A stretch of DNA of 51,564 bases from Spartobacteria bacterium (GTDB taxonomy: Bacteria > Verrucomicrobiota > Kiritimatiellia > RZYC01). Location of the stretch: assembly GCA_009929845.1 (NCBI GenBank), contig RZZM01000002.1:1-51564 (forward strand), written 5' to 3'. The notes under the pieces are model-generated. The model ran no database searches. It saw only the letters and a program-made list of their open reading frames with translations, and was not told where the DNA came from. The position numbers and the translations under genes were made by a program. Position 1 is the stretch's first letter, and every line of letters starts with the position of its first letter. Shown piece after piece: positions 39,647-44,682 of the stretch.

Positions 39647-40519
39647 GTGAGTAGTACCGGTACAGCCAAGGCAGATAACAGAGTGTATGAAGCAAGCGCT
39701 GATTTTCCCTCTATCGACAAGCGCACCTTCAAGCAGATTTCCGATCTGGTCTATGAAAAATGCGGGATCTGCCTGAACCAAAAGAAAGAGGCCCTGGTGC
39801 AGGCGCGGATCAGCAAACGCATGCGGGCGCTGGGCATCAAGGATTTCAAGTCGTATTTCGCTTTTGTGGAGTCCGATGAAACCGGCGGGGAACTTACCGC
39901 CATGCTCGATGCCATTTCCACCAATGTCACCCATTTCTTCCGGGAGTCACGTCATTTCGACCTGCTGGGCGAATTTCTGCAGCGCTGGGAACAGGCGGGA
40001 CAGTCCCGTTTCCGCATATGGTCCTCGGCGAGTTCAAGCGGCGAGGAACCCTACACCATAGCGATCACCGCCCGGGAAGCCTTGCAAAACGCGAGCGACT
40101 GCAAGATCCTGGCCACCGACATCTCCACGCGCATCGTAAAAAAGGCGCAACAGGGCATCTACAGCGAACGCAATGTGGATAAAGTCCCGCGCCCCCTTCT
40201 GGCCCGTTACTTCCGGCGCCTCCCGTCCCTGCCCGGCGCAGAAAAGCACTTCGAAGTGGATCCTTTGCTCAAACACATGGTCAAATTCGGCCATATTAAT
40301 CTTTCAAAGCCACCTTTTCCTTTACGGGGGCCCCTGGATGTCATATTCTGCAGAAACGTTATGATCTATTTTGACAACAAAGTGCGCAGGGAGCTGTTGG
40401 CCGACATGTACCGGCTCCTGAAACCAGGAGGTTATCTTATGGTGGGGCATGCGGAAAGCCTGTCCGGCATGCTCAGCGACTTTAAATCCATTGAACCCTC
40501 GGTCTATATTAAAACCTGA
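39647..40519 (+). CDS. cheR: chemotaxis protein methyltransferase CheR
   Basis: The FFRESRHF motif is present, along with the SAM-binding IWSSASSSGEEPYTIA and FCRNVMIYFD. The start is a GTG with a GAAGGGAAA SD. Confidence 0.9.
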   Translation: MSSTGTAKADNRVYEASADFPSIDKRTFKQISDLVYEKCGICLNQKKEALVQARISKRMRALGIKDFKSYFAFVESDETGGELTAMLDAISTNVTHFFRESRHFDLLGEFLQRWEQAGQSRFRIWSSASSSGEEPYTIAITAREALQNASDCKILATDISTRIVKKAQQGIYSERNVDKVPRPLLARYFRRLPSLPGAEKHFEVDPLLKHMVKFGHINLSKPPFPLRGPLDVIFCRNVMIYFDNKVRRELLADMYRLLKPGGYLMVGHAESLSGMLSDFKSIEPSVYIKT

Positions 40520-40531
40520 TTTTTTATCATC

Positions 40532-41011
40532 ATGGCATCTATTATTGTCGACATATCGGACTTGAAAGTATCCAGCAACCCCGAGGATACCCTTGTTACT
40601 TATTCCCTCGGCTCGTGCCTGGGCGCCACCTTTTACGATCCGGTGCAGCAAATCGGGGGCATGATCCACTGCATGCTTCCGCTGTCCAAGATCGATACGG
40701 CGAAAGCGGAAAAAAACCCGGCCATGTTTGTCGACACCGGTATCCCCAAATTACTGAAAACCATGTTTGACCTCGGCTGCCGGAAAAAAGACATCATCGT
40801 ACGCGTCGCGGGCACCGCGCGTGTGCTGGACCACAAGGGGCTCTTCAAAATCGGAGAGCGCAACTACACGGTATTCAGAAGGATTCTTTGGAAGAATGAA
40901 ATGATGATTGCCGCGGAGGATGTAGGGGGGAACATCTCGCGCACCTTACGGCTGGAAATCGCATCCGGACGACTCACCGTCAAATCCGGTGGCATAGAGA
41001 GGGAATTATGA
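40532..41011 (+). CDS. cheD: chemoreceptor glutamine deamidase CheD
   Basis: YSLGSCLGATFYDP (catalytic Cys), GGMIHCMLP and GGNISRTLRLEIASG are present. The length is 159 aa. Confidence 0.88.
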   Translation: MASIIVDISDLKVSSNPEDTLVTYSLGSCLGATFYDPVQQIGGMIHCMLPLSKIDTAKAEKNPAMFVDTGIPKLLKTMFDLGCRKKDIIVRVAGTARVLDHKGLFKIGERNYTVFRRILWKNEMMIAAEDVGGNISRTLRLEIASGRLTVKSGGIEREL

Positions 41012-41892
41012 ACAACTATTATTCAGGGCCTGGGGCCTCCGGCAAAGAAGATTACCTGGCGGGTATACTGCGCGCGATTGATACCTTTCCGTCGATGCCT
41101 TCCTTTGTCAGCAGTATTATCGATCTCCTGCACGACCCGAACGCCAACATCCAAACCATCGCCGAACGGGTGAAATTCGACCCGGGCATGACCGCGAATA
41201 TTTTAAAGCTGACCAACTCGGCGCAGTTTGGCGCCCAGCACCGCATCGCCAGCCTGCAGGAAGCCATCGTACGGCTGGGGTTGCGCCAACTCTTCCAGTT
41301 GGTGGTCAGCGCGGGCATTTCCAAGCGCATGACGCGCCCCCTGCCGGGCTATGAACTACGCGCGGATGAACTGCTCAGCCACAGTGTCTGGGCCGCCGTG
41401 GCCTCCGCCGAACTATGCAAAGCCCTGCACATCAACGCCCATGACATGCTCTTTACCGCCGGCCTGCTCCACGACCTGGGCAAACTCATCCTGGATGATT
41501 TTGTGCAAAACGAAAAGGGACACCTTCAGGAACTGGTCCAGCTTAACGGCATGACCTTTGATACAGCGGAAACGGAGGTTCTGGGGATGAGCCATGCGGA
41601 GACCGGCGCCCAGGTGCTGATCCAGTGGAATTTCCCCGAGGCGTTGAGCGCCGCCGCGGCTTGGCATCACCATCCTGAATACGCGGAGAGCCACAAGGAC
41701 ATCGTCATGATTGTTCATATCGCCGATGCCCTCGCCTATTCCGAAGGCGTCGGCTGCGGCATCGACGGCATGCAGTACGAACTCTCCACCGAGGCGGTCA
41801 ATCAACTGGGCCTAAAAAAGGAGACCCTCGAATATGTCGCCAGTCAGACGCTCTCTAAAATGCAGCAGCTTGAACAGATTCTCAAGGGATAG
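41008..41892 (+). CDS. HDOD domain protein
   Basis: FPSMPSFVSSIIDLLHDPNANIQTIAERVKFDPGMTANILKLTNSAQFG and GLLHDLGKLILD are present. The gene overlaps cheD by 4 bp. Confidence 0.88.
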   Translation: MNNYYSGPGASGKEDYLAGILRAIDTFPSMPSFVSSIIDLLHDPNANIQTIAERVKFDPGMTANILKLTNSAQFGAQHRIASLQEAIVRLGLRQLFQLVVSAGISKRMTRPLPGYELRADELLSHSVWAAVASAELCKALHINAHDMLFTAGLLHDLGKLILDDFVQNEKGHLQELVQLNGMTFDTAETEVLGMSHAETGAQVLIQWNFPEALSAAAAWHHHPEYAESHKDIVMIVHIADALAYSEGVGCGIDGMQYELSTEAVNQLGLKKETLEYVASQTLSKMQQLEQILKG

Positions 41893-42767: not shown

Positions 42768-43794
42768 TCCACCCGTCAAAGTGCTCATTGTTGATGATTC
42801 CGCCGTTGTCCGACGTGTCTTCACCGAGGAGCTTAATCGCGACCCGGAAATCCAGATTGTCGGTTCTGCCCCGGACCCCTATGTGGCGAGGGACAAGATT
42901 GTCAACCTCCAGCCTGACGTGCTGCTGCTGGATATTGAAATGCCACGCATGGACGGCATCACATTTTTGCGCAAACTGATGCACTATCGCCCCATGCCCA
43001 TCATTATTGTTTCTTCCCTCACCGAAAAGGGCGGCGCGCTGGCACTCGAAGCCATCAACGCCGGCGCCATTGATGTGCTGTGCAAACCCGGCTCCGCCTA
43101 CAGCGTCGCCGATATGTCCGTGGCCCTGCGTGACAAGATCAAAGCAGCGGCCCATGCCTGCCTGGACAAACGGCCTCCTCCAATCAAGCCCGATGAACAG
43201 CCCAACCGCCTCAGCATGACAAAAACCACCGCCAAGGTACTGGCGATCGGCGCCTCGACCGGCGGCACACAGGCCATCGAAAAAGTGCTGATACGCCTGC
43301 CTTACAACGCCCCGGGCACGGTGGTGACCCAACACATGCCGGAACACTTCACCACCTCATTCGCCGAACGCCTTAATTCATTTTGCGCCATGGAGGTCCG
43401 CGAGGCAAAAGACAACGACTCGGTCATCCCCGGCGTGGCCCTGATCGCGCCCGGCAATTACCACATGGTGCTGAGGCGCAGCGGCGCGCGTTACTACGTC
43501 CAGGTCCGCACCGGCCCGCTGGTCCATCACCAACGTCCGAGCGTGGAAGTCATGTTCAAGTCCGTCGCCAAATACGCCGGCGCCAACGCCATCGGCGTGA
43601 TCCTCACCGGCATGGGCCGCGACGGCGCCATCGGACTGAAGACCATGCGCGAAGCGGGGGCCTACACCATCGCCCAGGACAAACACTCCTGCGTGGTCTA
43701 CGGTATGCCCGCGGAAGCCGCGAAGATTGACGCCGCCTGCGATATTCTCCCCCTCGACAGAATTCCGTCGGCCATCATAAACCACGCCTATTAA
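42760..43794 (+). CDS. cheB: protein-glutamate methylesterase/deamidase CheB
   Basis: An N-terminal receiver domain is present ([19 protein letters not shown]). The esterase domain has GASTGG, VTQHMP and GMGRDGA, forming the Ser/His/Asp triad. The gene overlaps the preceding gene by 8 bp. Confidence 0.93.
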
Positions 43795-43806
43795 TGGAGA
43801 GACACT

Positions 43807-44682
43807 ATGCCCAAAGAGTTCCCCGTCATTCTTAAAGAACTCGAAAATATCCGTAATCTGCCCACCCTTCCCGTAGTGCTTGAACGTGTCAAAAAGGCCG
43901 TACGCGACCCCAAATCAAACGCCGACCAGATTGCCAGGATTGTGATGGACGACCCGGCCATGATGGCCCGCATCCTGAAAGTTGTGAACTCCCCCCTCTA
44001 CGCAGGCGCTGAAAAAATCGATTCCCTGCAAATGGCCATCAGCCGACTCGGTTTCACCGCGCTGCACAACGTTGCCCTTTCCACCTCGGTGTTTACCTCC
44101 TTTGCCAAAACCGCCAACAGCGTCTTTGACCGCATCGAATTCTGGCGACACTGTATTTCGACGGGCATTGCCGCCAACGCCGTCTGCACCACCTGCCGGA
44201 GCAAACTCAAGCGGCGCTACAGCCCGGACATGCTCCATCTGGCCGGCCTGCTCCACGACATCGGAAAAATCATCCTCGACAACTACTACAACGACGAATT
44301 CACCAGGGCCATCGGACTCACCAAGGAACAGGGCGTGCCGCTCTGCGCCGCCGAAACCCAGTGCGTCGGCGCCACCCATAACCAGGTCGGCGGCTGGCTT
44401 GCCCAAAAGTGGAACCTCGCCCCCGAACTCGTCGAGGTTGTCCGCTGGCACCACGCCCCCCATAATGCCTCCGACGAAGCCCAGGAACTGGTCGAAATCA
44501 CCCACGTCGCCAATTATATCTGCAACTTCCGCATGATCGGCGACGGCGGCGACACCATTTCCCCCTCCTGCCAGCCTGGCGTCCTCAAACGCCTCGGACT
44601 CGAAGAGGAAACCTACTGGAACATCCTCGACTCCATCGTCGAAGAGTCCAAAAAATCCGAAATCCTCCTCTCCCTCCTCTAA
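43807..44682 (+). CDS. HDOD domain protein
   Basis: LPTLPVVLERVKKAVRDPKSNADQIARIVMDDPAMMARILKVVNSPLY and GLLHDIGKIILD are present. This is the last gene of the che-like operon. Confidence 0.88.
   Translation: MPKEFPVILKELENIRNLPTLPVVLERVKKAVRDPKSNADQIARIVMDDPAMMARILKVVNSPLYAGAEKIDSLQMAISRLGFTALHNVALSTSVFTSFAKTANSVFDRIEFWRHCISTGIAANAVCTTCRSKLKRRYSPDMLHLAGLLHDIGKIILDNYYNDEFTRAIGLTKEQGVPLCAAETQCVGATHNQVGGWLAQKWNLAPELVEVVRWHHAPHNASDEAQELVEITHVANYICNFRMIGDGGDTISPSCQPGVLKRLGLEEETYWNILDSIVEESKKSEILLSLL

Follow-up and report, generated by a model that had tools for sequence, protein, structure and literature searches.

A seven-gene che operon carrying a cheD-linked HDOD gene, detached from its probable kinase gene in a Kiritimatiellia-like bacterium

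The contig RZZM01000002.1 (51,564 nt, assembly GCA_009929845.1), which in its full length is called the window here, carries a chemotaxis (che) operon of seven genes, two of which encode proteins of the HDOD domain family. The place of this operon, and of its first HDOD protein (HDOD1), in the chemotaxis pathway of the organism was investigated. The window is contig C141 of G000, a Kiritimatiellia-like metagenome-assembled genome (MAG) of 5.6 Mb in 780 contigs that is 91% complete. The open reading frame (ORF) coordinates were taken from the ORF list of the window, and domains were assigned by Pfam and NCBIfam profile searches. All seven genes lie on the forward strand. The operon starts at cheR (39647..40519, GTG start), which encodes a glutamate O-methyltransferase of methyl-accepting chemotaxis proteins (MCPs) with 290 amino acids (aa) and matched Pfam CheR_N at 3.7e-18, Pfam CheR at 4e-57 and NCBIfam CheR at 4e-68. 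It is followed by cheD (40532..41011), the gene of a receptor glutamine deamidase/methylesterase of 159 aa (Pfam CheD, 1.3e-27), by the gene of HDOD1 (41008..41892), a CheD-linked HDOD protein of 294 aa (Pfam HDOD, 5e-54; HD, 1e-9), and by cheY (41905..42306), whose product is a single-domain response regulator of 133 aa (Pfam Response_reg, 5e-25) with CheY as its best NCBIfam match (5e-20). The next gene, cheX (42309..42767), encodes a phosphatase of phosphorylated CheY (CheY-P) from the CheC/CheX/FliY family, which has 152 aa and a single active site (Pfam CheX, 6e-14). The receiver-methylesterase encoded by cheB (42760..43794) has 344 aa (Pfam Response_reg, 3e-20, and CheB_methylest, 6e-63; NCBIfam CheB, 4.6e-126), and the last gene (43807..44682) encodes HDOD2, a protein of 291 aa from a receiver-associated HDOD subfamily (Pfam HDOD, 4e-58). 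The genes are separated by gaps of 12, 12, 2 and 12 nt and overlap by 4 bp (ATGA) at cheD/HDOD1 and by 8 bp at cheX/cheB.

The operon is bounded by thrC (38060-39445, reverse strand), which diverges from cheR across an intergenic region (39446..39646, forward strand) presumed to contain the promoter, and by a convergent class I methyltransferase gene (44691-45557, reverse strand). The closest named homologs of ThrC, with 69-78% identity, come from MAGs of Kiritimatiellia and Verrucomicrobiota. No CheW-domain or MCPsignal match was detected when the whole 51.6 kb of the window was searched with profiles, and the contig has no cheA, cheW or mcp gene. A sequence-only reading of this DNA had earlier described seven co-directional and tightly packed genes in the order cheR-cheD-HDOD-cheY-cheX-cheB-HDOD, enclosed by thrC and the convergent methyltransferase gene and lacking cheA, cheW and MCP genes; the ORF coordinates were found to be identical, the Pfam assignments agreed and the absence of these genes held across the contig. 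The same reading had taken the catalytic residues of CheR, CheD and CheB to be intact, and this was confirmed by the presence of the motifs or by alignment to solved structures. In CheR, the S-adenosylmethionine-binding stretches SSGEEPYT and FCRNVMIYF are present and positions 1-193 of the 195 in the profile are covered (PF01739, with PF03705 as the N-terminal domain). Cys29 and His46 of CheD align with the LGSC and H motifs of Thermotoga maritima CheD (2F9Z chain C, 6e-20). In the alignment to 1A2O/6YMZ (1e-102), CheB keeps Asp58 of its receiver and the methylesterase motifs with Ser, His and Asp, including GMGRDG, and its NCBIfam score was 420.8 bits against a curated cut-off of 293 bits. 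The D85-x3-E89-x2-N92-x3-G96 stretch of CheX corresponds in the alignment to the ELxN active site of the T. maritima protein (1XKO/1SQU), and CheY has D9, D10, D56 and the Lys of RKPF. CheD was found by tblastn to be present in a single copy in the genome.

The linkage of HDOD1 to CheD was examined in 151 genomes of the phylum of the window, 12 of which contain CheD, and 14 CheD loci were inspected. Of the 14 loci, 12 have an HDOD gene no more than 3 kb from CheD and usually adjacent to it, and these loci are spread over 10 of the 12 genomes. In the two exceptions, G026 and G064, an HDOD1-like gene was not found at E<=1e-20. The association is kept in family f27 of this phylum even though the genes there are not co-transcribed. 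At these five loci (L103-L105, L107 and L108), the HDOD gene comes after cheA on one strand and is met by a convergent cheD on the opposite strand, with cheR-cheB located 1.5 to 5.6 kb off. The linkage extends to other phyla, where the complete order cheA-cheW-cheR-cheD-HDOD-cheY-cheX-cheB occurs in one Krumholzibacteriota MAG and one Deltaproteobacteria MAG, rearranged or partial versions of this full operon occur in Thermodesulfobacteriota, Syntrophales and KSB1 MAGs, and cheD-HDOD pairs occur in MAGs of Desulfobacterales, Syntrophobacteraceae, Desulfosarcina and Bacteriovoracaceae. The sequence-only reading had considered the embedded HDOD genes unusual for a che operon and possible partners of the Che proteins; it was borne out in that an HDOD gene behind cheD is kept across phyla, and the partnership is what we infer from this conservation. 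A description of HDOD together with CheD was not found in the literature searched, which left most subscription journals outside its coverage.

CheD and HDOD are also found joined in one protein. Five single-frame CheD-HDOD fusions were accepted, of which P0113 and P0118 have the CheD Cys and His intact, and those at L028, L037 and L039 were recognised from the reading frame only. Another candidate, P0015, was rejected as an artefact, as its N-terminal half is garbled and the long-read contigs L023/L024 are frameshifted. These two metagenome contigs (ENA ERZ25039462 and ERZ25039513), both from one long-read study, contain many frameshifts, with cheB and cheR in several frames and cheA in two genes, and one of the frameshifts gave rise to the false fusion P0015 of the protein database. 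The fusion P0118 is encoded in a cassette at L113:8826-16360 (GCA_054008375.1, JBPNDH010000036.1) together with an HTH-REC regulator (REC, receiver domain), CheR, a HAMP-PAS-GAF hybrid histidine kinase and a further REC-kinase. No CheA, CheW or MCP was found near this cassette, which may be a CheR/CheD system acting on a sensor kinase.

The two HDOD proteins of the operon belong to different subfamilies. In a tree of 83 HDOD domains, all 19 CheD-adjacent HDODs, HDOD1 included, fell in one subtree (85-94 in the Shimodaira-Hasegawa-like approximate likelihood-ratio test (SH-aLRT) for the enclosing branches), and none of 500 label shuffles was as clustered. The signature G-x-G-x-G-x-[DNE]-G was present in 14 of 28 HDODs from a CheD context as against 1 of 51 others, and reads GVGCGIDG in HDOD1. 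HDOD2 has no such signature and lies outside the CheD-adjacent subtree, in a group with paralogs on C10 (51% identical) and C708 (43% identical) and with the HDOD encoded after cheY in the C86 chemosensory cluster of the same genome. The C708 paralog is a REC-HDOD fusion response regulator of 458 aa by Pfam (C708:11814-13190, reverse strand), and its gene lies downstream of another response regulator gene and of genes of sensor-kinase size. The HDOD profile (PF08668, 196 positions) is covered from position 2 to 196 in HDOD1 and from 1 to 196 in HDOD2. Both proteins matched 3HC1, an HDOD protein of Geobacter whose two Fe are coordinated by five His and one Asp (PMC12075610); the match was at 3.6e-30 for HDOD2 and at 4.7e-22 for HDOD1. 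Residues H115, H150, D151, H191, H215 and H216 of HDOD2 align with the conserved His/Asp positions of 3HC1, and the predicted metal ligands of HDOD1, H125, H155, D156, H196, H220 and H221, show little or no variation among 44 orthologs. By these alignments, the conserved His and Asp residues of HDOD1 and HDOD2 would correspond to the six di-metal ligands of 3HC1.

The same seven genes were found in the same order in three metagenomic relatives. HDOD1 is 80% identical in the closest of these (L127), where the module also adjoins thrC and the downstream genes differ, and 70% identical in L115, where the flanks are unrelated. In L021, where HDOD1 is 56% identical, the module is located between cheW-mcp-mcp and the flagellar genes fliC and, on the other strand, fliA-flhG-flhF-flhA. 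The orthologs of these neighbours are scattered over other contigs in the genome of the window, and CheR of the window is 59% identical to its L021 ortholog as against 28-29% to three paralogs in its own genome. The 4-bp overlap of cheD and HDOD1 is conserved in all three relatives. The HDOD2 gene was found after cheB only in these three closest relatives and thus appears to be a recent addition. Upstream of cheR in the window, a regex scan found a sigma-28-like TAAA-N16-GCCGTTCA at about 39517-39544, which is a weak lead; a similar TAAA-N15-GCCG motif is present upstream of cheR in L021 and is absent in L115. A weak sigma-54-like TGGCA-N8-GCT was seen at that place in L115 instead. Promoter and terminator scans of the operon region gave nothing above chance, and the sigma-70 scan gave nothing convincing.

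The genome was then found to encode the rest of a chemotaxis pathway on other contigs. The profile search matched CheW domains ten times, in four cases within frames of CheA size, and 11 MCPs exceeded the Pfam cut-off. By tblastn, four genes each were counted for CheR and CheB, one for CheD and about fifteen for HDOD proteins. The MCPs contain multiple methylation-type sites of the form [AST]xx[EQ][EQ]xx[AST] (EQ, QE and EE candidates), several of them with Gln, and Gln at the methylation sites of MCPs is the substrate of CheD. A solitary and complete cheA is located at C777:12978-15389 on the reverse strand and encodes two Hpt domains and dimerisation, HATPase and CheW-like domains by Pfam. 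It has no che neighbour; the gene of a DUF2334/polysaccharide-deacetylase-like membrane protein and mnmG lie upstream, and downstream is a convergent gene of 774 aa with a C-terminus that by eye resembles the formylglycine-generating enzyme. A cheW-mcp pair is present on C722, the CheW of which is 69% identical to the CheW adjoining the module in L021, and C372 encodes an MCP. The flagellar genes fliC and fliA are on C461 and flhA, flhF and flhG on C264, and the flagellar genes of the genome have 50-72% identity to those flanking the module in L021. A flagellar rod and ring cluster (flgF, flgG, flgA and flgH-like) is located at C348:12879-18914 and has beside the rod genes a further cheY of the classical kind (123 aa) and a further phosphatase of the CheX type (about 168 aa).

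Other chemosensory genes are present in the same genome. A second complete cluster at C86:8829-16789 on the reverse strand encodes STAS, CheA, CheW, CheB, CheR, CheY, HDOD and CheX proteins. Its CheA has 1066 aa, with two CheW-like domains and a C-terminal receiver, and the cluster contains a CheX and an HDOD gene of the HDOD2 subfamily but no CheD. C100 and C253 carry a Wsp-like set with its own cheR and cheB, C690 encodes a CheB-CheR fusion kinase, and C238, a contig of 2.7 kb, encodes another CheA. CheC is not encoded in the operon, and the two CheC-family matches of the genome (C348 and C225), which are paired with response regulators, fit the CheX Pfam model better.

The kinase of the module was sought among these CheA proteins. 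When the CheAs of five cheD-HDOD operons from other phyla were compared with the genome, C777 was the best match in each case, with 382-525 bits as against 267-286 bits for the next paralog. For the CheA tree, kinase cores were cut by BLAST; a cut of the last 400 residues did not suit the C86 CheA, which has additional domains at its C-terminus, and was dropped. In G065, which belongs to the same order as G000, the genes cheD-HDOD-cheY-cheX-cheB-fliC are directly preceded by a cheA, the product of which shares 59% identity with the C777 kinase core. The CheA of an operon in G026, from the same class, shares 54% with it, and the three CheAs group together (SH-aLRT 90). Identity to the C777 core is only 33-40% for the remaining CheAs of G000, which sit on long branches, that of C238 (33%) on a very long one. 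The scores of the C777 core against E. coli CheA (347 bits) and T. maritima CheA (311-314 bits) do not decide its chemosensory class. From these sequence relationships, C777 can be predicted with good confidence to encode the kinase of the module. In G077, from the same family, CheA was likewise matched best on contigs other than that of the module, and thus the split appears to be a trait of the lineage and not an accident of assembly. The absence of CheA, CheW and MCP from the operon is an ordinary genome rearrangement. These results favour one of the options left by the sequence-only reading, that the kinase and receptors are encoded elsewhere, as four CheA, CheW proteins, MCPs and flagellar genes are on other contigs and the orphan cheA is orthologous to the kinase gene found in one operon with this module in relatives. 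That reading had also envisaged a canonical cheA-cheW-mcp set elsewhere in the genome together with an HDOD insertion not shared by relatives; such genes do lie elsewhere, and the HDOD gene proved to be conserved in relatives.

These findings together make it probable that the operon serves adaptation and signal termination in a flagellar chemotaxis pathway, as a module separated from its kinase, coupling protein and receptors, and that HDOD1 is a partner of CheD. In such a pathway, the C777 CheA, held in arrays by CheW and MCPs, would phosphorylate the CheY and CheB of the module. CheY would carry the signal and CheX would strip the phosphate from CheY-P, and the modification state of the receptors would be set by CheR through methylation, by CheB through demethylation and by CheD through deamidation. 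The coupling protein and receptors would include the C722 cheW-mcp pair and the C372 MCP, and the output would be the flagellum. HDOD1 would bind CheD and thereby modulate the availability of CheD to the receptors or its activity on them, in a role like that of CheC, and its di-metal pocket might add a redox, metal or small-molecule input. By analogy with the REC-fused relatives, HDOD2 would probably be controlled by a phosphorylated receiver, that of CheY or CheB. The physical interaction of CheD with HDOD1, the role of the metal site and the partner of HDOD2 are what we infer here. A more specific version, in which HDOD1 is a di-metal (probably iron) accessory protein that binds CheD in a CheC-like role so that a redox, oxygen, nitric oxide or metal signal tunes adaptation, and HDOD2 is a second sensor coupled to a phosphorylated receiver, is offered only tentatively.

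Several observations weigh against this interpretation. The operon of G026 (L099, C16:3721-11787) has cheA-cheW-mcp-cheR-cheD-cheY-cheX-cheB without an HDOD gene and with 124 bp from cheD to cheY; this pathway type is thus complete without an HDOD1-like gene, and HDOD would be dispensable to it, an accessory and not an obligatory component. The C86 cluster has cheY-HDOD-cheX without cheD, which indicates that HDOD proteins can be tied to CheY/CheX rather than to CheD. The loci that entered the HDOD tree had been selected by patterns of the HDOD1 family, so that the sampling was biased. Orthology is the only tie of C777, C722 and the flagellar contigs to the module, in an assembly of 780 contigs and 91% completeness from which more che genes may be missing, and the C238 CheA lies on a contig of only 2.7 kb. 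In favour of the interpretation, the fusion P0118 was modelled with AlphaFold2 at a mean predicted local distance difference test score of 88.5, with a disordered linker at 154-163 (49 aligned rows), and its predicted template modelling score (pTM) of 0.82, as compared with the ~0.6 expected for freely placed domains of ~150 and 280 residues, gives a hint of a defined interface between them, in a model with five paired rows from which the pTM was read and no interface.

The main alternative is that the HDOD proteins are outputs controlled by CheY-P, as split REC-HDOD regulators; they may be metal-dependent phosphohydrolases through which chemotaxis acts on a nucleotide messenger or another process, the adjacency to cheD being incidental. 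HDOD is defined as an output domain of response regulators and the C708 REC-HDOD protein is related to HDOD2; the triad of HDOD, cheY and cheX is found both in the window and in the C86 cluster, cheY follows the HDOD gene in many cheD-HDOD operons, and the retention of all six di-metal ligands would fit catalysis or ligand binding. However, the constant neighbour of the HDOD1 subfamily is cheD, there is no adjoining cheY at L028, L029, L034 and the five f27 loci, and the fusions known are to CheD. HDOD1 and HDOD2 stand apart in the tree, so that this explanation, which the triad of the cheD-less C86 cluster favours for the HDOD2 subfamily, may hold for HDOD2 alone; for both proteins we regard it as possible but doubtful. 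It is unlikely, though to be considered, that the module is not dedicated to the C777 kinase and serves several arrays or another one, for example by supplying the single CheD to the array of the C86 or C238 CheA. CheD and the module-type CheX are present in one copy each as against four CheA, the C238 gene lies apart on its short contig, and the separation of the module from every kinase gene removes the operon argument for exclusivity. On the other hand, C86 has its own cheB, cheR, cheY and cheX, the Wsp-like set on C100 and C253 has its own cheR and cheB, the C238 CheA is the most divergent noted above, and orthology links operons of the module type specifically to CheA of the C777 type.

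The sequence-only reading had also proposed that the module modifies a non-canonical target with the HDOD proteins as partners. A module that works independently of CheA, CheW and MCPs on a target such as a sensor kinase would agree with the lack of cheA, cheW and mcp in the operon and elsewhere on the contig, and the related L113 cassette shows that a CheD-HDOD fusion with CheR and a hybrid histidine kinase can exist without them. That cassette, however, differs in gene content, and the cheY, cheX and receiver-bearing cheB of the module need a phosphodonor of the CheA type. Orthologous modules are found within complete che operons or beside cheW-mcp and flagellar genes, and the genome encodes an orthologous CheA, a CheW and MCPs whose methylation sites are of the receptor type. 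The proposal thus found no support here and appears quite improbable. Even more remote is the replacement of CheA as the input of the module by the neighbouring Hanks-type Ser/Thr kinase, to which the sequence-only reading had speculatively pointed. This protein of 1056 aa with leucine-rich repeats and a C-terminal C-type lectin domain is encoded at 45588-48758 on the reverse strand, opposite to the operon, and its gene ends 906 bp from that of HDOD2 with the methyltransferase gene in between; proximity is all that speaks for it. No protein kinase gene was found beside the module in L127, L115 or L021, the flanks of which differ among themselves and from those of the window except for thrC in L127, and this link was dropped for that reason. 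In addition, it is established knowledge that the receiver Asp is phosphorylated by phosphotransfer from His kinases and not by Hanks-type kinases.

Among the known systems, the one functionally closest to the operon is the CheC-CheD-CheY-P branch of adaptation in Bacillus subtilis and T. maritima (2F9Z). Both have an intact CheD encoded beside the gene of a small partner, along with CheY, a phosphatase of the CheC/CheX/FliY family, CheR and CheB. They differ in that the gene coupled to cheD here encodes an all-helical HDOD protein with a predicted di-metal site and not CheC, and in that the only phosphatase of the operon is the single-site CheX, the operon lacking CheC with its two active sites and CheD-binding helix. 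CheX is not known to bind CheD. Chemotaxis genes dispersed over several loci are well known, for example in Helicobacter, in Campylobacter and in clusters I and V of Pseudomonas aeruginosa. The arrangement found here resembles these in that adaptation genes lie away from cheA, cheW and mcp and yet serve a single pathway, as orthology to the complete operons of relatives shows here, and differs from them in that the kinase gene is wholly solitary and the detached module retains its own cheY and cheX.

Chemotaxis is among the signalling pathways that are understood best. The HDOD domain is widespread in signalling and its structure has been solved in several proteins, but no biochemical function is known for it, and we know of no partner or activity of the 3HC1 protein of Geobacter sulfurreducens, with which HDOD1 and HDOD2 have the six His/Asp positions in common. 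REC-HDOD and stand-alone HDOD proteins of motility, such as Xanthomonas GsmR, Campylobacter Cj0248 (1VQR), Pseudomonas SadB and PSPTO_4229, are like those of the operon in matching Pfam HDOD, and HDOD2 groups with a REC-HDOD fusion. These proteins and the Pf-5 genes have genetic ties to flagellar motility (PMC11004494, PMC11813219), but none is reported to adjoin cheD. SadB, a proteolysis adaptor, no longer has most of the metal ligands (PMC12075610), whereas HDOD1 and HDOD2 both retain all six ligand positions.

The chemotaxis pathway described here has a conserved, putative HDOD accessory protein that was undescribed in the literature searched, and the missing CheA is unremarkable. The module stays a unit of seven genes even when detached from its kinase, and two HDOD subfamilies, one linked to CheD and one to receivers, are placed side by side at one locus. 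The subfamily that is coupled to CheD in translation and sometimes fused with it spans Kiritimatiellia and other Verrucomicrobiota, Thermodesulfobacteriota, Krumholzibacteriota, KSB1 and Bdellovibrionota, and close relatives with and without HDOD, such as G026, provide a natural comparison. CheD is thus a concrete candidate partner for HDOD, which suggests an adaptation branch in which the HDOD protein replaces CheC. If HDOD1 does act as a metal-site sensor that binds CheD in this way, the HDOD domain would for the first time have a defined partner in biochemical terms, and a textbook pathway would gain a new layer of input.

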